Below the pieces are notes generated by a model. That model ran no database searches and was not told the DNA's origin. It was given only the letters and a program-made list of their open reading frames with translations. This document shows, in pieces, positions 41,731 through 49,625 of a DNA stretch of 64,000 bases. Location: assembly GCA_017822615.1 (NCBI GenBank), contig GCA_017822615.1_4530.1, one strand, 5' to 3'. Origin of the DNA: a phage. The translations under genes were made by a program, and so were the position numbers. Position 1 is the first letter of the stretch; each line of letters starts with the position of its first letter.

Positions 41731-41768
41731 ATAAAAGAAAAGGGAACCTTTGCGGGTTCCCTTTTTAT
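41731..41768. terminator. bidirectional terminator at convergent junction
   Basis: GGGAACC-tttgcg-GGTTCCC flanked by A-run upstream and TTTTTATT downstream; between stop of ssb (+) and stop of 41768..44443 (-). Confidence 0.65.
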
Positions 41769-44443
41769 TAGTCGTAATATTTCAAACCTGTAATGAACTT
41801 CGATCCCCAATCCGCACTTGCGGCGGTGAACGTCAACATCCAAGTTGTAGCTGTACCAGTGAAGACCTCTCGTTGCACAGTACCATCAGTGTGGTAAATG
41901 TCCACGCCAGTATGTCCATTCTTAGGAATAGTGAAGGTAACAGCACTGGTAGTGTCTCGTGCATAAGAACAAACAAATGGTGTCCCAGCCCAAACTGGAT
42001 TTGTCATATCACCCATCTCAAGCTGTGGAACCCAAGCAATAAGACCTGCCGTACCATCTCCTGCGAAAGTGTCTGATCCACTTGCATTCAAAGCTATAAT
42101 CTCATAGGTTATAGATGCTTGTTTGGCAACTGTCACTTTGTGTAGAATTACACGATACCAACCATTCCCCATATCGATTATGTTTGCATCTGCACCTGTA
42201 AATGTTCCAGCTACAAGATCATAAGTCCCTTCGTTAATCTCATCTCCTGAAGTCAATTTGAGTTTCACTTTAGTGATCCCGTCTGGCTTCAAGAATACGG
42301 ATGCCGCCCAGTGCTTACCTGCTGTAATATCAGAAGCTGTATTCACTGCTGATAAAATATGTTGTCCTGAAGTTGTAGAAGGTGTTAACTTGTAAGTGTT
42401 AGCTGTAGTTCCAACCGGAGAGTTGATTGTTGATGCCGTGACTGTCAAGTTCGTCTTCAACCACGGGGAAGCTGTTGTCAAGTTATTGTTGATAAAGATA
42501 TGTGTACGGTTGGCTGCTACAACACGTCTACCTTGTGGAGTTGTACCAACATATTCTAAAGGTGCTACGGGAGCAGAACTCTCTGTAGGTACAAGGATAT
42601 CTCCAGAAGCCCTGGCATAACGGTTACTCCTGTTGACCTTTACATCCGCCGGAATAGTTTCTTGCGTCAAATCATAATCCATCACAATCACCACAGCATT
42701 CACTGTGAGATAAGAACTATCTTCGGCAGTTACCACACCTTGATAAGTTGCTCTACAACCGATACGACAACCTCCATCAGCAACCGCTGTAATAACGCCT
42801 GTAACGGGGTCAACTGTTGCTACCGTAGGGTCATTAGAGAAATACTCAACAACCATACCAGGTAAGCTTGCTGCTCCTGTTGGCGTTATTTCTGCTACCA
42901 TTGTTTGTGTTGTTCCTACATCCATCGCAGATAAGCTAGGGGTGTAAACACTCAATGTTGAAGCATATCCTCCAGAGGTATCTGATAAAGTTGTTCCTTC
43001 AGCGTTTAAGGCTGTCATACCTGCATCAAAACCACCTTCTGCATGGAAAGTCATTAAACCAGTAGATGATATTGTCATGTTTGCAGGGGCAGAAGAAGTG
43101 TATTTAATATTGAAAAGTTTGCCTCCTTCTGGGCTAACAGAATGTGTCAACTGTTTAGTTCCACCTACAATACAAATTCCTAAAGAATCTGTAGTTAAGC
43201 CTGTTGCCAGAATATCGCCCGTAATCACGGAGCTTGCTATTGGTGTGAATTTATTATAGTTTAGACCACTATTGAACAGATACGAGGCTTTCCCATCTTT
43301 CCAAATACCGGAATAATACATATCTCCATTATAAACGAAAAAGGTTCCTTGATAACCTAATTGGTTAGTAACATCCATATTCAGCGTATGAACGCTTGTG
43401 AGCTTGTTTATATCCCAAGAACCCACTCCTTCAGGTTTAACTGGTTTTCCCACTTGGAGTGGATCTCCGCTCGCAGAATCATACCCCAAACCTAAGTTTG
43501 CAGTGTAGTTCTTACCAATAGCCCACAAGGAATTATTGATCCCAACGAAAAAAGAGTGGCGGCTTGGTGGAAACTTCCATGTTGAGAAACCTGCTGCAAA
43601 GGTATCCAGTTTAGTGTAGGTTGTTTCTGTATTAGATCTAACATATAAGTAGTTTACTGTACCCGTGCCACCGGAGGTATCTCCTACAACTATTGTCTGG
43701 GAAACTGTATTGATGTAATCTTTGACATACACTGTTTCAGTAGTGGATATTGTGGCATTGACAAAAGCTGTTGTTGTGTTATTATTACCTGCTAAACCTT
43801 TACTAGCTCCACAAACACGCAAGGTTCCCACATTGTTGACATAAGAGCATTGGTTGTAACCTGCATCAAAAGCAACTGCTGCGCTTGTTATCTGACGAGG
43901 AGTAGAAACTTCGTTAGTAGTGCTTGCACCTAAACTACCTACTGTGTTTTGACCCGATCCATAAAGAACACCACTATTCATTAACCAGAGAGTATTGTTA
44001 TACCCTCCTTTAACCTCTTTAAGATTGGCTAAAGAAATAGTCCCTGTTATTACAGATGGAAAGCTGGTCCAGGTAGTTACACATGCATCCGTACCACCTG
44101 CTGCTATAGATCCTACCAACCCTGCTGTCAATCCTGAATATTGCCATCCCCCACTGTTAGTTTTAATAACAAAACAACGATCTGCGGTAAACACATCCGC
44201 TACTACAGTAGAAGCTAAGTGGAAATTATTGAATCGTGCACTACGAGTTCCATCTGCAATCTCACCAAAGAGGTTTGCGCCTTGAGTAAACAATCTACCA
44301 TCATTAAGCAAAATTGCTAAACTGCTGTTAGAATTACCAGCGTTATCTGGGTAATCTAAAGTGATTACTTTTTTAACAATACCTGCTGGCAGAGGAACGA
44401 CACCAGTGCTGGTCATAATAGTAAATATTGGAATTGGAAACAT
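41768..44443 (-). CDS. tail fibre-like structural protein
   Basis: 891 aa, G/S/T/N-rich, distal end of structural operon. Confidence 0.45.
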   Translation of the reverse strand: MFPIPIFTIMTSTGVVPLPAGIVKKVITLDYPDNAGNSNSSLAILLNDGRLFTQGANLFGEIADGTRSARFNNFHLASTVVADVFTADRCFVIKTNSGGWQYSGLTAGLVGSIAAGGTDACVTTWTSFPSVITGTISLANLKEVKGGYNNTLWLMNSGVLYGSGQNTVGSLGASTTNEVSTPRQITSAAVAFDAGYNQCSYVNNVGTLRVCGASKGLAGNNNTTTAFVNATISTTETVYVKDYINTVSQTIVVGDTSGGTGTVNYLYVRSNTETTYTKLDTFAAGFSTWKFPPSRHSFFVGINNSLWAIGKNYTANLGLGYDSASGDPLQVGKPVKPEGVGSWDINKLTSVHTLNMDVTNQLGYQGTFFVYNGDMYYSGIWKDGKASYLFNSGLNYNKFTPIASSVITGDILATGLTTDSLGICIVGGTKQLTHSVSPEGGKLFNIKYTSSAPANMTISSTGLMTFHAEGGFDAGMTALNAEGTTLSDTSGGYASTLSVYTPSLSAMDVGTTQTMVAEITPTGAASLPGMVVEYFSNDPTVATVDPVTGVITAVADGGCRIGCRATYQGVVTAEDSSYLTVNAVVIVMDYDLTQETIPADVKVNRSNRYARASGDILVPTESSAPVAPLEYVGTTPQGRRVVAANRTHIFINNNLTTASPWLKTNLTVTASTINSPVGTTANTYKLTPSTTSGQHILSAVNTASDITAGKHWAASVFLKPDGITKVKLKLTSGDEINEGTYDLVAGTFTGADANIIDMGNGWYRVILHKVTVAKQASITYEIIALNASGSDTFAGDGTAGLIAWVPQLEMGDMTNPVWAGTPFVCSYARDTTSAVTFTIPKNGHTGVDIYHTDGTVQREVFTGTATTWMLTFTAASADWGSKFITGLKYYD

Positions 44444-44452
44444 TTAAACCCT

Positions 44453-44481
44453 CCATAAAAAGAAAGCCCCTTTCGGGGCTT
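44453..44481 (-). terminator. hairpin terminator/attenuator between tail fibre genes
   Basis: AAGCCCC-tttc-GGGGCTT with U-run on minus-strand RNA (rc of CCATAAAAAGAA). Confidence 0.5.
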
Positions 44482-44484
44482 CTG

Positions 44485-46509
44485 TTATCGTGTTACAACA
44501 ACCATGTCCACGATATCACCCACACCAGGATACGTTAATTGCAAAATTGTTACTGCGTTAGCAGTAGTTGCTATTTCTGTATCATTTAGTGCTCCATAAG
44601 ACGCATCTAGTGTAACCGTGTGTCCCGTTGTATCTTGAATCAAATAAATCATTGCTGAAAACGCTTTAGGTTTTGTAGAGCCAGTGACACCAGGCCATGC
44701 TCCAACTGTCAGAGCGTCAGTTACTGTAACAAAATACATATTGGAAGTTCCAGAAGGAGTCCAAGATGCTCCAGAGTTGGCAGTAGTTGTTTCAAGTTCC
44801 ATGAAACCTGCTGTAACTCTAGTTGGTGTTATAGCTTCCGTAGGATCTGATCCTGATATTTCGATCCAATTTCCATCAGACCTACCATACGTCAAGCCGT
44901 CTTGAGGGGCTTCTGGTATACTAGGAAGAGTGCCTATAAGCGTCCACGTAGAAGAATCTGTTTTCTTAAACACTGCTCCAGTGGTAGTATTGAAGGCGTA
45001 ATCATTGATAACACCGTCTCCTGCGACTGGATTAGTTGTTGCTACAAACCACTGTGCGCCGTCCTTACCGTTGGTCCCATCAGTACCGTTGGTTCCGTTT
45101 GTTCCAGGATCACCCTTATCTCCTTTATCCCCTTTTTCACCTTTGTCGCCTTTAATACTTCCCATGTCAACAAAAGATGCGGAATTGGTGTCTTGATCGT
45201 AGGTATAGATGTAAAGATTACTAGTGTCTTCAGTTAAGTAAGCATCACCATAGTTATTGTAAACAGGGAGAGCTTCACTGTTCGGAACATGACCTTTAGC
45301 TGTAATTGATGTTCCTCCAAGACTGCCAACATTCATCCATTCCGTAGCATCTTGGACCCAAACATATAAATCATTATTAATTTTATATGCGTCACCTACT
45401 TCTCCAGTCGGAGGAAGTTCAGCTTCGCTGTTCAGAACCCCGATAATCTCTAAGCCTGATCCTGTTGCACCCACTGGTCCTTGTGGACCTAGTTCACCTT
45501 GTGGACCTCGCTCTCCTTGATCACCCTTGTCTCCTTTTGGACCTTTAAGTGAGGCAATAAAATCTACTTCTGTCCCTTCATTACCAGCATCCAGCCAACT
45601 TTGATATGCAGATTTCCCTTCATCTCCATCTGTTCCATCTAGACCGTCTTTTCCTGCCTCGCCTTGTGGACCTTGAGGACCAACAATATTACCCATGTTG
45701 ACCCAAGCTGTCCCATTAGAGACATAAAGATTACCATTGATAGAATAAGCTTGGCTTACGTTTTCAGAGGTAGGTTGTGGTAAGTTACTTGTAGAAGGCA
45801 AATCTCCACGATAATCAAAACCGTTGGCGTTAACACCAGGTGCTCCCTGTGGCCCTGTAGGACCAACATCGCCTTTATCACCTTTTATAGAGGTAAGGAA
45901 ATCATAAACAGATCCTGTATTACCATCTGCCAACCATACCTCGTAAGCTGATTTACCTTCTGGCCCAAGAGAAGAAATAAGTTTCCAAACAGAACCATCC
46001 CAAGCGTAGATTACATCACCTACGATATAACCATCCCCTGCAACGTTACCTGTGGATGGTAGTTCACTAGTACTTGCTAATGATCCTTTAATATTAAGTT
46101 GAGCACCAGTATCCCCTTTCAAAGAGGCAAGCCACTGTGCTTCTGTTCCAACAAAACCATTATCAAGTGCGATCTGATAAGCCGATTTACCAGCTTCAGG
46201 TATTGTTTCCGACAGATCATCAATTTGTTGCTGCATTGCCGTAAACTTGGCATTGATAATTGCTATATCATCAGCGGTCCCAACACTTTGCCATGCAAGG
46301 GAAGAAATACCACCTGTGGTGGCTGGCGTAGAGTTTGCTGGAACCACTTTAGGAAAAGTTCCTTTCCATTGGTAATAATTCCCTTCTGCTGCTAACAGCA
46401 AAACTTCACGGGAATTACGTAATGTAAAACCTGCCTCAAAGCTGCGACGTTTTCGATAAGTAGCTTCTACCAGATCGGCTATCGCACTATTAGGTCTTGT
46501 TAAATTCAT
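44485..46509 (-). CDS. tail fibre protein with collagen-like Gly-X-Y repeats
   Basis: 674 aa; GDKGDVGPTGPQGAPG, GPQGPQGEAGKDGLDGTDG, KGPKGDKGDQGERGPQGELGPQGPVGATG, KGDKGEKGDKGDKGDPGTNGTNGTDG; three repeats of GKSAYQ/E..W...G....DF..S.KG. Confidence 0.6.
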   Translation of the reverse strand: MNLTRPNSAIADLVEATYRKRRSFEAGFTLRNSREVLLLAAEGNYYQWKGTFPKVVPANSTPATTGGISSLAWQSVGTADDIAIINAKFTAMQQQIDDLSETIPEAGKSAYQIALDNGFVGTEAQWLASLKGDTGAQLNIKGSLASTSELPSTGNVAGDGYIVGDVIYAWDGSVWKLISSLGPEGKSAYEVWLADGNTGSVYDFLTSIKGDKGDVGPTGPQGAPGVNANGFDYRGDLPSTSNLPQPTSENVSQAYSINGNLYVSNGTAWVNMGNIVGPQGPQGEAGKDGLDGTDGDEGKSAYQSWLDAGNEGTEVDFIASLKGPKGDKGDQGERGPQGELGPQGPVGATGSGLEIIGVLNSEAELPPTGEVGDAYKINNDLYVWVQDATEWMNVGSLGGTSITAKGHVPNSEALPVYNNYGDAYLTEDTSNLYIYTYDQDTNSASFVDMGSIKGDKGEKGDKGDKGDPGTNGTNGTDGTNGKDGAQWFVATTNPVAGDGVINDYAFNTTTGAVFKKTDSSTWTLIGTLPSIPEAPQDGLTYGRSDGNWIEISGSDPTEAITPTRVTAGFMELETTTANSGASWTPSGTSNMYFVTVTDALTVGAWPGVTGSTKPKAFSAMIYLIQDTTGHTVTLDASYGALNDTEIATTANAVTILQLTYPGVGDIVDMVVVTR

Positions 46510-46571: not shown

Positions 46572-49500
46572 TTAGGTTGTTGGCACATCTACTACTGGCG
46601 TTGGGCGAATAACCGCAGTATTACCTACAGAAACATTACTGGAATCATTAGGTATGGTTTTAATTCTAACTCCAGCACTTGTAGGCGTTACAATTGGATC
46701 TGCAATGTCTATTTTAACTGGGTTAGTCCACGTATCATTATCTTGATAAGGTGCACGAGTAATAACTGTGTCCAAATCTGCTCCACCTACGCCAGCACCA
46801 GGAATACGGATACGTGTCCCTGCTGACAGAGGGTAATGATACAACCAAGAAGCATTTGTTGCTGTCCCGTTAGGAGTCAAGTTCTGTGTCAGGAAGGTAT
46901 CTCCTGCCTGTGTAGCTCGAATACCGAAAGCTGGGATATCTGGAATATATGCCCCACTTGTTGTTACAAGGAAGAACGTATTATCCGCTTTGACTATCAT
47001 ATCACCTTTGTCAAACTCTTTCCCTGTTGGGAAATGCATTCCATCAATGTTTCGACTAGGATTAGGCTCTAAGTAATAAACTTTGCCCGTTGTCCCTACA
47101 ATAGCTCCAATACCACCTGCGATATTGGTATACATATTAGCTTCAACATTACAGTTGACACGATGAATATCCGAGTAACGGCAACGGCTCCACTGTGGAC
47201 GACCAGTAACCATCGTCTTGCCATCTGGGTAACAGTTTACGTTAACCATTTCAAGAACAGATTTTTCTCTACGGAAGAATCCATCATAAAATGTCCCTGG
47301 ACCAGATTCAGGTTGACCAACACAATCGAAGATATTACAGGTGATGTTAGACATTGAAAGCCAAGAAGCTATACCGAACAACTGCAATGCAGCGCAACGA
47401 ATATTTTCAAAGCTAACTCTGTTTTCATAACCTGGCCCAGCGGAAACTCCCGCAAAAACACGCCCAGTTTTGGTGTGAATGTTACGAACAGAATAGTTAA
47501 AGCATGGATTTGAAGGTCTGCCCTGTGCCGGAACTACCGGATTACCCTCTTCGTCCAGAACTGCGTTAGTTCCCCACTCCAAGTAAATCATACGGATATT
47601 ACTTGCAAGTGTGCTACCGTCTGTTTTAGGCTCTCCATAAACACCATCAATCGTAAAGTCTTTACTTCCATACATTACAACTGCGCCAGTTGCCAAACCT
47701 GTCCCAACAGATACGGTTTGATCTGGATCGCCATGAATGTTTTCGATAGAAATATTACGACCAACTTCTACGTGGACAATCTGACGGCAACGTTTTGCAA
47801 AAACGTTACGAATTGTAATGTTCTTACAATATTGATCATCAGGGATTCCGTAACCATATGGTCCTTTACCAGCTACACCGATACCGATACCCCAGTTCGA
47901 CAGAGGAATAGGAGCATTAGTTCCATCGATATTAGACAGGTAAATATTCTCAATCACACAACCATCGTCATAATGTTTATTGATGACGTTCAGTTCTATT
48001 GCATCACCTTGCATGTCCATGAAGGTAAGGTTACGGAAGACACCACGTGTTACTGGTTCCCCTGTTCCTTGTTGAAGGATGCCGTATAACCCATTTTTAA
48101 AAGTACAATTATCAATTTCAAAAGTACCTGATATTGGGTTGCCTTGGAATACCAAGCTACCAACTTGACCCGCGCGAGGAGCACCGTCCCACAAACAATC
48201 GAACATGCGCACAGCACCACCCCAATACATAACACGAGAGTTACGGAAAGTTGTGCCTTCTACTGTAGCATTTTGCACACGATAGTCGCGTTGACCACGG
48301 AACACACCCCCACGCAAAGTGATACCTTGAATATCAAAAGAGCTTGTCGTGAAAGTCATATCGCAACCGTAAGCATCGAGAATCTTGCTTTTCGAAGCTT
48401 TTGCTGCTAACAGTGCCGCTTGGAAAGCTGCTTCTGGTGTGGTATATGCTGTTGTGTTGTTAGCAAATTCTGACAAGTAGACAACATCGAATAAATCGTT
48501 GTATGTTCCACCACGAGGGGTTAACAGTCCTTCTGTATTGGTCAGAACCCATGCATTTGGACCTAATCCACCGCTTGTCTCCAATGTATCGGAGGCCAAA
48601 ATACTTTTTGGTAAACTTCCAGCCCAACGATAACGACCAGCGCCACGTCCAATCGTCTGATTTTTAGCTGTCAGAGTTACATTATTACCAAAGCTTGTAG
48701 GCAAATGAACAAACTGTCCACGCTCAACAGCCAGTGCAGAAAGGTCTACAGATCCTCCAGAATAAGTCATTACTCCAGAAACAGACAAGGATGTTAAAGT
48801 GCCTGTAATGTTAGGAGGTAATGTGTAGGAAGACTGCGCTACCGGATCATACAGAGCTTTAATCCCTGTTAACGATTGACCTGCTGTTGCGTAAGCCACC
48901 TCATCATCTAACAAACCATACTTACGAGCAATAGTTTGCAGAGGGACTTTATCCATGCTTTCTGTTAGTTCTTCCGTTTTTGTTTCTAAACTAACAAGAC
49001 GGTTCTCTAGATTAGGATCTGTATCTGCTGAAGCTACGATTTTGCCAATATAAGCAAAAAGTTTGTTTGGCAGTCCTGTTGCAGGATCGTGTCCCAAAGG
49101 TTCAGATAAGATGATCTTACTATCTTCTATACGGAAAGCTTCCCCCAGAACCTGAATAACACCATTGATCGTAACAATAGCACTATCAAAGATGTAAGGA
49201 GGACTAATTACTGTTTCATAACCAGTTGCACCAGAATATACCCAAGGGGTGACTTCTGTTGCCAATTGTTCTGTCTTCAGTCCCCACAATACCCAGTTGT
49301 TATCTCCTACTGGAGTCCCTTGCATAGGGATTGGGTTAACCAATGTAGCGTTAGGGGCATAGTAATAACCGCTCAATACTCCATTCTGGAAATAACGAAG
49401 TTGGTTAAAAACTGTTTCGTTTGTGCCTTGCGCCCAATCCAATGGGCTTTTAAAGAAAAAGTTGTCAACAAGGGCTTTTCTCAGGGTTGGTATCAACCCT

Positions 49501-49625
49501 GATTCTGTTTCAATACTCTCTGTAGCACTTCCATTAATAACATCATGGAGTTGGTTAGATGAGAAAATAACCAGGTCTACGCCCTGTTCGAGAGACGTTG
49601 CTGGATATGTTGGGAATGTTGCCAT
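46572..49625 (-). CDS. tail fibre/tailspike with beta-helix-like (pectate-lyase-type) central region
   Basis: 1017 aa; repeated short segments such as NITIRNV...ISIENIHG...FTIDGVYG typical of right-handed beta-helix. Confidence 0.5.
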   Translation of the reverse strand: MATFPTYPATSLEQGVDLVIFSSNQLHDVINGSATESIETESGLIPTLRKALVDNFFFKSPLDWAQGTNETVFNQLRYFQNGVLSGYYYAPNATLVNPIPMQGTPVGDNNWVLWGLKTEQLATEVTPWVYSGATGYETVISPPYIFDSAIVTINGVIQVLGEAFRIEDSKIILSEPLGHDPATGLPNKLFAYIGKIVASADTDPNLENRLVSLETKTEELTESMDKVPLQTIARKYGLLDDEVAYATAGQSLTGIKALYDPVAQSSYTLPPNITGTLTSLSVSGVMTYSGGSVDLSALAVERGQFVHLPTSFGNNVTLTAKNQTIGRGAGRYRWAGSLPKSILASDTLETSGGLGPNAWVLTNTEGLLTPRGGTYNDLFDVVYLSEFANNTTAYTTPEAAFQAALLAAKASKSKILDAYGCDMTFTTSSFDIQGITLRGGVFRGQRDYRVQNATVEGTTFRNSRVMYWGGAVRMFDCLWDGAPRAGQVGSLVFQGNPISGTFEIDNCTFKNGLYGILQQGTGEPVTRGVFRNLTFMDMQGDAIELNVINKHYDDGCVIENIYLSNIDGTNAPIPLSNWGIGIGVAGKGPYGYGIPDDQYCKNITIRNVFAKRCRQIVHVEVGRNISIENIHGDPDQTVSVGTGLATGAVVMYGSKDFTIDGVYGEPKTDGSTLASNIRMIYLEWGTNAVLDEEGNPVVPAQGRPSNPCFNYSVRNIHTKTGRVFAGVSAGPGYENRVSFENIRCAALQLFGIASWLSMSNITCNIFDCVGQPESGPGTFYDGFFRREKSVLEMVNVNCYPDGKTMVTGRPQWSRCRYSDIHRVNCNVEANMYTNIAGGIGAIVGTTGKVYYLEPNPSRNIDGMHFPTGKEFDKGDMIVKADNTFFLVTTSGAYIPDIPAFGIRATQAGDTFLTQNLTPNGTATNASWLYHYPLSAGTRIRIPGAGVGGADLDTVITRAPYQDNDTWTNPVKIDIADPIVTPTSAGVRIKTIPNDSSNVSVGNTAVIRPTPVVDVPTT

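Follow-up and report, generated by a model that had tools for sequence, protein, structure and literature searches.

A Side Tail Fibre with Short Collagen-Like Tracts between Folded Modules in a phAPEC8-Type Escherichia coli Phage

Identity and Setting of the Gene

The window analysed here is a single stretch of 64,000 nucleotides of phage DNA (GenBank assembly GCA_017822615.1, contig GCA_017822615.1_4530.1). The gene under study is encoded on its minus strand, and the features assigned to it are listed below in the order in which they occur along the protein.

44485..46509, minus strand: whole gene, encoding a 674-aa side tail fibre orthologous to phi92 gp151 (basis: ORF list, PHROG 15437 and BLASTP)
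46279..46476, minus strand: anchor domain Tail_spike_N (PF18668), aa 12-77; 70.5 bits in Pfam against a cut-off of 25
46204..46269, minus strand: single long helix, aa 81-102 (H81-102 in the AlphaFold2 secondary structure)
46114..46191, minus strand: GKSAY module A1, aa 107-132, type I (Ala8, Phe13, Trp20); modelled helices H110-116 and H123-130
45964..46101, minus strand: beta module B1, aa 137-182, motif LP..G..GD.Y ... W..G; internal-repeat alignment; four modelled strands, pLDDT about 88-90
45880..45957, minus strand: GKSAY module A2, aa 185-210, type II (Trp8, Asn13, Phe20); modelled helices H188-194 and H201-209
45835..45882, minus strand: collagen-like tract 1, 6 triplets, aa 210-225; Gly at every third residue
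45682..45825, minus strand: beta module B2, aa 229-276; internal-repeat alignment; model pLDDT 91-93
45616..45681, minus strand: collagen-like tract 2, 8 triplets, aa 277-298, leading straight into A3
45541..45618, minus strand: GKSAY module A3, aa 298-323, type II; modelled helices H301-307 and H314-321
45460..45543, minus strand: collagen-like tract 3, 10 triplets, aa 323-350; Gly at every third residue
45313..45453, minus strand: beta module B3, aa 353-399; internal-repeat alignment and AlphaFold2 model
45151..45309, minus strand: beta module B4, aa 401-453; internal-repeat alignment and AlphaFold2 model
45058..45150, minus strand: collagen-like tract 4, 11 triplets, aa 454-484; the length-variable segment
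44926..45054, minus strand: divergent beta module B5, aa 486-528; internal-repeat alignment and model
44851..44925, minus strand: foldon-like beta hairpin, aa 529-553 (IPEAPQDGLTYGRSDGNWIEIS); phmmer, Pfam and model
44488..44844, minus strand: C-terminal beta-sandwich knob, aa 556-674
44463..44482, minus strand: terminator-like hairpin directly 3' of the stop codon; 8-bp stem with 5 GC pairs, and a T run after it (consensus scan)

The gene is a catalogued collagen-containing side tail fibre of phAPEC8-type E. coli phages and was already known. Its product aligns over aa 1-674 with positions 1-655 of the 656 in the PHROG 15437 profile "tail fiber protein" (E=0), its nucleotide sequence is 100% identical to a gene annotated "tail fiber protein" in Escherichia phage AV125 (Phapecoctavirus), and phi92 gp151 shares 60% amino acid identity with it over the full length by BLASTP. 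The name "TfpM2" has been used for a fibre of this family (PMC12695924). The gene lies in a cluster of tail-fibre and tailspike genes, flanked on one side by a colanidase tailspike (the adjoining ORF 46572-49625 in the window matches PHROG 6117 "colanic acid degradation") and on the other by another tail protein. In phi92, gp150 and gp151 are adjacent, the fibre gene likewise following that of the colanidase. The designation as a tail fibre in the first-pass annotation is borne out by the end-to-end PHROG alignment, the identity with AV125 and the match to gp151 in both sequence and position. The gene itself is ordinary, belonging to a heavily sampled coliphage genus. A terminator is annotated in phage ASO2A at the same place as the hairpin found here. 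Opposite-strand ORFs within the fibre gene, such as 45005-45196, lack gene support and were taken as by-products of the periodic Gly codons.

The order of modules can be written as N-A-B-A-c6-B-c8-A-c10-B-B-c11-B-F-C. In this string A stands for a GKSAY module and B for a beta module, cN denotes a Gly-X-Y tract with N triplets, and F and C mark the foldon and the C-terminal knob, respectively. It can be observed that the tracts do not simply alternate with GKSAY modules, as had been described initially; the five beta modules had been overlooked. The PF18668 anchor, the probable short coiled coil, the T4-fibritin-like foldon and the beta-sandwich knob were also missing from that initial description.

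Terminal Domains and Location on the Virion

The anchor domain matches, in a PDB sequence search, the N-terminal parts of CBA120 TSP1, TSP3 and TSP4, G7C gp63.1 and other tailspikes, with E values from 1.9e-13 to 2.6e-5, and the same tailspikes were returned by Foldseek. The neighbouring colanidase tailspike also carries a PF18668 domain, at aa 302-361. The presence of this domain on both the fibre and the colanidase tailspike suggests a branched multi-fibre apparatus like those of phi92 and CBA120, in which the same anchor occurs on TSP1 and TSP3. By analogy with CBA120-type tailspikes, the N-terminal anchor would dock the fibre onto such a branched adsorption apparatus. The bodies differ, however: those of the CBA120 tailspikes are beta-helix depolymerases, whereas the body here is a fibre of beads and collagen-like tracts. 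The single long helix that follows the anchor in the AlphaFold2 model is a probable short trimeric coiled coil.

At the opposite end of the chain, the knob is probably the receptor-binding tip. Its sequence is common to the phiTE tail fibre and to HdK5/Mangalyan-type coliphage fibres. The phiTE structure 9cuy_g was considered as a structure for the knob on the basis of this sequence match and was set aside, since the model in that study covers just its N-terminal residues. A C1q/TNF jelly-roll fold was not found in the C-terminal knob. With Foldseek, the C-terminal part had a single significant structural match, the Pa223 capsid spike gp52 (PDB 9NY6), which differs from the present fibre in being borne on the capsid, in having no collagen tracts and in its N-terminal attachment, and which shares 12-16% sequence identity.

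This match raises the question of whether the protein could belong to the capsid, as a head fibre or a decoration spike, instead of being a tail fibre. Such a reading would also accommodate the label "potential capsid binding domain" given to the N-terminal domain in a note of the phi92 record, as well as the cryo-EM study of phi92, in which gp151 could not be placed in any fibre density (PMC13450770). It nevertheless appears very improbable, given that the PF18668 anchor is found in the tail-borne CBA120 TSP1, TSP3 and TSP4 and G7C gp63.1, that the gene is situated between a colanidase tailspike and another tail protein, and that the knob is shared with tail fibres. Moreover, "head-binding domain" is the historical name, from the P22 tailspike, for a tail-binding domain. 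A tail fibre is therefore the preferred reading; for orthologs of phi92 gp151, the tail-fibre position on the virion, and even presence there, are putative.

Immediately before the knob lies the foldon-like hairpin. Matches to T4 fibritin and foldon chains were obtained with phmmer at aa 531-552 (E 0.003-0.03). Pfam Fibritin_C (PF07921) reached 14.8 bits on the fragment aa 486-554, under the cut-off of 21, and 36.6 bits, above that cut-off, in relative P0016. The strands of the hairpin are located at E541-544 and E547-550 in the AlphaFold2 model, and a hairpin is present in both models. Residues A534, P535, D537, Y541, R543 and W548 are invariant among orthologs, and the motif IPEAP.DG..Y.R.DG.W keeps the Glu, Arg, Tyr and Trp positions, which we take to be the key residues of the T4 foldon.

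Folded Modules of the Shaft

The sequence GKSAY marks three 26-aa modules with Gly at each boundary and is located at aa 107, 185 and 298. All three copies had been quoted exactly in the first-pass annotation, and their size, given there as about 30 aa, is corrected here. Identity among the modules is 46-65% at the protein level and 58-65% at the DNA level. Each of the three copies was predicted by AlphaFold2 as a helix-loop-helix, with pLDDT of 80-86. Their junctions with the collagen-like tracts are tight: the final Gly of A2 doubles as the first Gly of tract 1, and A3 is fused in register with tracts 2 and 3. In 120 relatives in which GKSAY modules lie next to Gly-X-Y tracts, the median gap is -1 residue.

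Among 402 distinct GKSAY copies from relatives, positions 8, 13 and 20 form the three top mutual-information pairs. The core packing Ala/Phe-or-Tyr/Trp at these positions accounts for about 250 of the copies and the packing Trp/Asn-or-His/Phe-or-Tyr for about 118, with mixed combinations being rare. This covariation could partly reflect two old module subfamilies as opposed to direct compensation. The module is present in about 17,000 protein clusters, and tandem arrays of up to 38 copies are found in distant relatives. Furthermore, 126 A-A junctions were observed in GKSAY arrays without any collagen, indicating that the module is a generic spacer bead and no dedicated collagen cap. No family match to GKSAY was obtained in the copies of Pfam-A, NCBIfam and PDB searched, nor did a search of the literature yield anything specific on this motif. 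The bead would lend itself readily to domain annotation and to structure determination as a trimer. DUF2934 of Pfam gave no match at E<=1 on the A1-B1-A2 fragment. In relative P0029 the same family reaches 35.3 bits over the whole protein (cut-off 22), a sum of weak matches of which none passes singly. Designed ankyrin repeats were rejected as a structure for GKSAY, with profile matches at chance level.

The beta module, about 45 aa in length, has four strands in the model, with pLDDT of about 88-93. A profile of this module hits phiKZ gp184 (E=2.8e-4) and the JBD30 DUF2793 protein 8rk3_a (E=0.028), and no DUF2793 domain is reported by Pfam on the 674-aa protein itself. B5 was detected with a profile that was built with B5 copies included, and its assignment to the family is weaker than that of B1-B4.

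Gly-X-Y Tracts and Their Probable Conformation

The four Gly-X-Y runs reported initially were confirmed, with 6, 8, 10 and 11 triplets. They total 97 residues, with individual lengths of 16-31 residues, and are recognized by Pfam Collagen (PF01391) with 46.4 bits, above its cut-off of 27.2 (E=3.3e-12). With Gly at 13.5% of the protein, chance would not come near to producing in-phase runs of 6-11 Gly. Phage fibres have been known to contain collagen-like motifs since the late 1990s. Asp, Lys, Glu and Gln are abundant at the X and Y positions, which hold 10 Pro in total, a charged and proline-poor composition that resembles the hydroxyproline-free collagens of bacteria.

Comparison of orthologs demonstrates how differently the tracts are constrained. 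Tract 1 has 6 triplets in every ortholog, and all six of its Gly residues are invariant in the alignment. Tract 2 ranges from 5 to 11 triplets, tract 3 from 8 to 10, and tract 4 from fewer than 4 to 13. Across orthologs of 60% identity the periodicity of Gly is invariant while the X and Y residues vary freely, and every tract indel, in the ortholog alignment as well as in variants within lineages, comprises 3 or 6 residues only and keeps the phase.

Formation of a triple helix by such short, proline-poor tracts is not assured. It could be argued that they form no triple helix and serve as flexible hinges or linkers, rich in glycine, that join beads trimerising on their own, a reading which would suit the small number of triplets, the few Pro among the X and Y residues, the wide range of lengths tolerated among orthologs and the low confidence of the model in these regions, although pLDDT below 50 is expected for Gly-X-Y tracts in an AlphaFold2 monomer model and is uninformative. 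A mere linker, however, would not need the phase of three that is kept in all tract indels, and the strict periodicity of Gly against a background of varying X and Y residues points in the same direction, as does the above-threshold Pfam match. In addition, the Col domains of related phages and prophages that are flanked by trimerisation modules are triple-helical (PMC3368898). The linker reading is accordingly considered unlikely. If the segments do form collagen triple helices, they would contribute a thin rod of about 28 nm to the fibre. Being short, proline-poor and rich in charge, they would be too short to be stable alone.

Length Variation among Relatives

Length variation and conservation of the repeats in relatives had been anticipated in the first-pass annotation, and both were found: the modules are conserved, and orthologs range from 622 to 681 aa. 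Variation within the genus is limited, in that about 60 of the 64 listed Phapecoctavirus records have exactly 2025 nt. One close relative was found in IMG/VR; it is truncated and added nothing on polymorphism within the genus. Five independent length variants were identified within lineages of at least 90% identity, and all are in-frame changes of 1-2 triplets in tract 4 (-NGT, -KGDKGD, +KGE, +DGQ and -GIP). Tract 4 constitutes 4.6% of the protein, yet is the site of all five credible indels within lineages.

At the DNA level, a search for tandem repeats reported 9-nt arrays in tracts 2, 3 and 4 and none in tract 1. In tract 2 a 9-nt periodic array is located at 45662-45681 and in tract 3 a 9-nt/18-nt array at 45475-45519, while tract 4 contains two 9-nt arrays (45068-45105 and 45109-45154), the highest-scoring in the gene. 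The arrays consist of 2.2-5.1 copies of 9-nt or 18-nt units with 68-90% match, and long near-perfect tandem DNA of the contingency-locus type was not found in the gene. Replication slippage on the imperfect 9-nt periodic DNA of tract 4 would be the simplest cause of the triplet indels, a proposal that draws entirely on the positions of the indels and the sequence removed or added.

A different mechanism had been put forward at first, namely that the DNA repeats act as recombination sites for variation in fibre length. While the length does vary, homologous recombination between GKSAY DNA copies and Gly-X-Y DNA, adding or removing whole blocks, is quite unlikely as the source. A self-comparison of the DNA revealed short, diverged repeats only: no exact direct repeat in the gene is longer than 12 nt, a length that falls within the 9-15 nt of codon-shuffled controls. 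The GKSAY copies, with the DNA identity given above and exact in-register runs of at most 8 nt, would be poor recombination substrates, and the junctions of the five credible variants all lie outside the GKSAY copies. Some observations do favour gain and loss of blocks. The long GKSAY arrays of distant relatives show that duplication happened over evolutionary time, and one whole beta module, B5, is missing from ortholog P0012. An additional tandem copy of A1 is present in SKA64, with boundaries that fall within 1 nt of the GKSAY module. In this copy 77 nt are repeated exactly in tandem and one G is lost, which breaks the frame and truncates the annotated CDS. It should be noted that 77 nt is a common k-mer size of assemblers; the SKA64 copy is either an assembly artefact or a defective allele and was excluded from the variant count. 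The 162-aa deletion in EP57 was likewise excluded: its junction has no obvious microhomology, both neighbouring genes are also shortened, and the record is 130.7 kb in size versus about 150 kb for other Phapecoctavirus records.

Slippage on tract 4 is thus preferred for the fast component of length evolution, in which single Gly-X-Y triplets would be gained or lost, mostly in this distal tract. The slow component would consist of the gain or loss of whole beads. Single-triplet steps in the distal tract provide a concrete place at which the reach of the fibre could be linked to adsorption.

Proposed Build of the Fibre and Its Relation to Known Systems

Taken jointly, the observations are best explained by a side tail fibre of Phapecoctavirus with a beaded collagen shaft, whose length changes by triplets in tract 4 and, more rarely, by turnover of beads. 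We assign this explanation a probability of roughly 0.7. The protein is very probably homotrimeric. The shaft would resemble beads on a string, consisting of one short coiled coil, three GKSAY beads, five beta beads and four Gly-X-Y segments, and the chain would end in the fibritin-like foldon hairpin followed by the beta-sandwich knob. Folded trimeric beads at both ends of the tracts, together with the foldon, may keep the three chains joined and in register, as flanking domains do in the EPclA-D proteins and in engineered collagen-foldon fusions.

The closest known system is phi92 gp151 with its PHROG 15437 family, which has the same module order, the same gene position after the colanidase and the same N- and C-terminal domains. 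It differs mainly in the triplet counts of tracts 2, 3 and 4 (653 aa versus 674 aa here) and in point substitutions. The domain map presented here can aid the design of truncations and tags for orthologs of gp151.

A functional parallel is offered by EPclA-D, collagen-like tail-fibre proteins of EHEC prophages (Ghosh et al. 2012, PMC3368898), whose Col domains have non-collagen trimerisation modules beside or within them. Their Col lengths differ by multiples of 3, the proteins appear beaded in EM, and a flanking domain nucleates refolding of the triple helix (PMC3368898). The flanking domains, PfN (PF08400), PCoil, PfC (PF06820) and Pf2 (PF03406), are unrelated to the modules described here, and none of them was found by Pfam on the 674-aa protein at E<=0.1. 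The Col domains also differ, with one or two of about 88-116 residues in EPclA-D versus four tracts of 16-31 residues in the present fibre. By analogy, the fibre would work similarly to EPclA-D, but it is no member of that family.

More tentatively, the GKSAY bead, and to a lesser extent the beta bead, might be a widespread trimer-registering module that clamps or nucleates short collagen helices free of hydroxyproline, an idea that we regard as possible and somewhat doubtful. If it holds, nature would possess, in GKSAY beads and collagen-foldon junctions, a modular set of parts for building collagen rods that are segmented and adjustable in length, and the two covarying core types could encode specificity in the pairing of beads.

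The foldon invites comparison with T4 fibritin and with collagen-foldon fusions. As in these fusions, the motif of about 25 residues, predicted as a hairpin, lies C-terminal to Gly-X-Y sequence. It differs in being sub-threshold in Pfam and in not conserving the hydrophobic tail found at the C-terminus of the T4 foldon. Unlike in fibritin, the foldon is internal here, with the knob after it, and many relatives contain 2-6 tandem copies. Natural designs of bead, collagen and foldon may serve as templates for collagen biomaterials. In ortholog P0012 a Gly-X-Y tract abuts the foldon directly, and the chain 1nay_A of an engineered collagen-foldon protein (PDB 1NAY) was among the weak PDB matches.

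Identity and Neighbourhood of the Fibre Gene

At the DNA level, the fibre gene shows 100% identity to that annotated as tail fibre in Escherichia phage AV125 (Stephanstirmvirinae, Phapecoctavirus) and 91-99.9% identity to its counterpart in approximately 64 other Phapecoctavirus records. PHROG 15437 (“tail fiber protein”) covers the protein end to end, and the tail fibre identity proposed in the first-pass annotation is therefore well founded. Collagen-like motifs in phage fibres have long been known. Since both gene and family are in databases, annotated as a collagen-containing tail fibre, this finding is already known. The gene and its surroundings are as follows:

46572-49625, minus strand, upstream neighbour, 1017 aa, PHROG 6117 colanic acid degradation, phi92 gp150 homolog
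44485-46509, minus strand, tail fibre, 674 aa
44463-44482, minus strand, GC-rich hairpin and T run directly after the fibre stop codon
41768-44443, minus strand, downstream neighbour, tail protein, 891 aa, RCC1-like beta-propeller repeats and Big_2 Ig-like domains
41738-41765, minus strand, GC-rich hairpin and T run directly after the stop codon of this next gene

Over its full length, the fibre shares 60% identity with phi92 gp151. The latter directly follows the colanidase gp150, the same gene order as in the window. The colanidase homolog in the window (1017 aa) is approximately 200 aa longer than phi92 gp150 (804 aa); its Tail_spike_N domain is internal (aa 302-361), and tail-fibre PHROGs match its N-terminal ~200 aa. 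The protein encoded at 41768-44443 has been named TfpM1 and reported absent from Justusliebigvirus (PMC12695924). Phage ASO2A has annotated terminators at equivalent positions around its fibre gene, and each large fibre gene may possess its own terminator.

The GC skew of the window reverses at about 6 kb and again at about 42 kb, the latter coinciding with the minus-strand fibre gene block, and the GC content of the fibre cluster (0.42-0.43) is slightly above that of the rest (~0.38). Fibre genes of ~74-98% DNA identity are also found in records named for other hosts, namely ZCKP1 (Klebsiella), vB_AbaM_ABPW7 (Acinetobacter), B15 (Campylobacter), and PsgM04F (Pseudomonas phage), reflecting either a very broad host range or unreliable host labels.

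Module Order and Predicted Structure

Direct scanning of the protein revealed four uninterrupted Gly-X-Y runs, numbered as tracts 1-4 from the N-terminus, and GKSAY at aa 107, 185, and 298. Pfam Collagen scores 46.4 bits against a threshold of 27.2. The runs and the three GKSAY modules had been described from the sequence; they are far beyond chance, with module sequences exactly as quoted. What had been missed is the full module order, N-A-B-A-c6-B-c8-A-c10-B-B-c11-B-F-C, in which A represents a GKSAY module, B a beta module, c a Gly-X-Y tract with its number of triplets, and N, F, and C the anchor, foldon-like hairpin, and knob, respectively.

aa 12-77, N, tailspike anchor PF18668, 70.5 bits
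aa 81-102, long single helix in the AlphaFold2 model
aa 210-225, Gly-X-Y tract 1, 6 triplets
aa 277-298, Gly-X-Y tract 2, 8 triplets
aa 323-350, Gly-X-Y tract 3, 10 triplets
aa 454-484, Gly-X-Y tract 4, 11 triplets
aa 529-553, F, foldon-like, IPEAPQDGLTYGRSDGNWIEIS
aa 556-674, C, beta-sandwich knob

The N domain matches the N-terminal parts of CBA120 TSP1, TSP3, TSP4, and G7C gp63.1 in both sequence and fold. Module B is an internal repeat of ~45 aa with the motif LP..G..GD.Y...W..G, present in five copies of which the fifth is divergent; its profile hits phiKZ gp184, a minor capsid protein rich in beta structure (E=2.8e-4), and, more weakly, a JBD30 DUF2793 protein (E=0.028). The F region gives PDB sequence matches to the T4 fibritin foldon (E 0.003-0.03), lies under the Pfam Fibritin_C threshold in the window fibre but over it in relatives, and retains A534, P535, D537, Y541, R543, and W548 as invariant residues in orthologs. 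For the knob, sequence similarity extends to the phiTE tail fibre and, at 50% identity, to HdK5/Mangalyan-type coliphage fibres.

In the AlphaFold2 monomer model (mean pLDDT 72), each GKSAY module forms a helix-loop-helix (pLDDT 80-86), each B module a four-stranded beta unit (~88-93), F a hairpin, and the knob a beta sandwich (~90). The Gly-X-Y tracts, which contain few prolines and many Asp, Lys, Glu, and Gln, remain below 50, as expected for a single chain of a triple helix. It should be noted that the Gly phase is strictly conserved in orthologs while X and Y residues are free, and that tract indels occur only in multiples of three residues, all of which argues against the tracts being mere linkers.

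A homotrimeric side fibre is the best reading of this architecture. The N-terminal domain would anchor the fibre to a branched adsorption apparatus, as suggested by CBA120-type complexes and by the occurrence of this domain in the adjacent colanidase too. The shaft would consist of thin Gly-X-Y rods alternating with folded beads. The canonical collagen rise is 0.286 nm per residue, at which the 97 Gly-X-Y residues would add ~28 nm. In engineered collagen fusions the foldon serves chain association and register, and the weak PDB matches of the fibre include one such chain, the engineered collagen-foldon 1nay_A. In EHEC prophage collagen-like proteins these functions are served by PfC and PCoil, and the Col domains likewise vary in length by multiples of three (PMC3368898). 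On these precedents, chain association and register of the short tracts probably depend on the flanking trimeric beads and the foldon.

Length Variation in Relatives

The DNA repeats of the gene had been proposed as recombination sites for variation in fibre length. At the DNA level these repeats are weak: the three 26-aa GKSAY modules share 46-65% identity in protein and 58-65% in DNA, the longest exact direct repeat is 12 nt (9-15 nt in codon-shuffled versions), and the arrays detected by Tandem Repeats Finder are all short and imperfect, with 9-nt or 18-nt units, and lie within tracts 2, 3, and 4, with none reported for tract 1. Plus-strand ORFs of 60-110 aa also overlap the gene antisense, for example at window 45005-45196 (+), and the one opposite tract 4 reads PLSPLSPFSPLSPL; they are read as by-products of periodic Gly codons, not as genes.

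Within the genus, fibre length is very stable. The gene is exactly 2025 nt in approximately 60 of the 64 listed Phapecoctavirus records, and every full-length protein listed in the 90%-identity cluster measures 674 aa. The four exceptions are as follows:

ASO2A, -9 nt (NGT) in tract 4, at repeated AACGG(A/T)AC
iGC_PHA_EC001, -18 nt (KGDKGD) in tract 4, at repeated AAAGG(G/A)GAT
SKA64 (OM362897; 301-2401 of locus L003), exact 77-nt tandem copy of module A1, minus one G
vB_EcoM_EP57 (OR544956), 486-nt in-frame deletion of tract 3, B3, B4, and most of tract 4

The first two were counted as credible, and the others were left out as unverifiable. The SKA64 duplication breaks the reading frame, with a truncated CDS annotated (549-aa product). 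Its length of 77 nt is a common assembler k-mer size and its boundaries coincide with module A1 to within 1 nt; it is either an artefact or a real defective allele. For EP57, no obvious microhomology was found at the deletion junction. The fibre genes on both sides are likewise much shortened relative to the window, and the whole record amounts to 130.7 kb in comparison with ~150 kb for other Phapecoctavirus records, which points to either a phage with multiple deletions or a collapsed assembly.

Two other 90%-identity clusters contribute +KGE (two proteins), +DGQ (two proteins), and -GIP, all in tract 4. All five credible independent indel events are thus located in a tract that represents 4.6% of the protein, for which simple arithmetic gives a probability of ~2e-7 under uniform placement. 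The interpretation drawn from the sequence is partly borne out: the protein is a fibre whose length does vary in relatives, but through Gly-X-Y triplet steps in one tract and not through recombination between GKSAY repeats. Given where these indels lie and their sequence, the simplest explanation for the length change in tract 4 would be replication slippage on DNA of imperfect 9-nt periodicity, and each triplet would shift the reach of the distal knob by ~0.86 nm. Across genera, the triplet count is constant at 6 in tract 1 and spans 5-11 in tract 2, 8-10 in tract 3, and <4 to 13 in tract 4. In one ortholog bead B5 is absent and a Gly-X-Y tract directly adjoins the foldon, while more distant, longer relatives (800-1170 aa) combine these beads in different numbers and frequently contain 2-6 foldon-like units in tandem.

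The GKSAY Module as a Domain

Some potential for novelty may lie in the GKSAY bead as a named domain and in the natural collagen-foldon junctions, and only there. A profile of the three window copies matched 17,277 representative proteins (E<=0.001), with up to 38 copies per protein. The module is very widespread, yet no Pfam or NCBIfam family was reported for it, the profile found no solved structure in the PDB, and a literature search for the motif gave nothing relevant; weak DUF2934 matches sum up in some relatives with many copies. In relatives, the beads adjoin Gly-X-Y tracts (median gap -1 residue) and also occur in tandem arrays without collagen.

Among 402 distinct copies from 120 relatives, positions 8, 13, and 20 form the three pairs of highest mutual information. 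Two packings are observed, Ala/Phe-or-Tyr/Trp and Trp/Asn-or-His/Phe-or-Tyr, mixtures being rare; module A1 of the window has the first packing, and modules A2 and A3 have the second. The covarying triad is consistent with the two helices enclosing a small packed core, and old subfamily structure could also contribute to the covariation.

In blastn, the DNA of A1 alone (46114-46191) matched fibre or virion genes of unrelated phages, among them Acinetobacter phages, Pseudomonas jumbo phages (e.g., 201phi2-1), and Cellulophaga phages. At 76-86% identity over 60-100 nt, this is unusually high DNA conservation for a module of 26 codons. Beads may not be confined to tailed phages. Collagen-plus-bead proteins were also located on the 1.26-Mb IMG/VR contig IMGVR_UViG_2597490056_000001 (records L074 and L084) and on the IMG/VR contig GVMAG-S-3300005286-75 (record L078), where GVMAG denotes a giant-virus metagenome-assembled genome.
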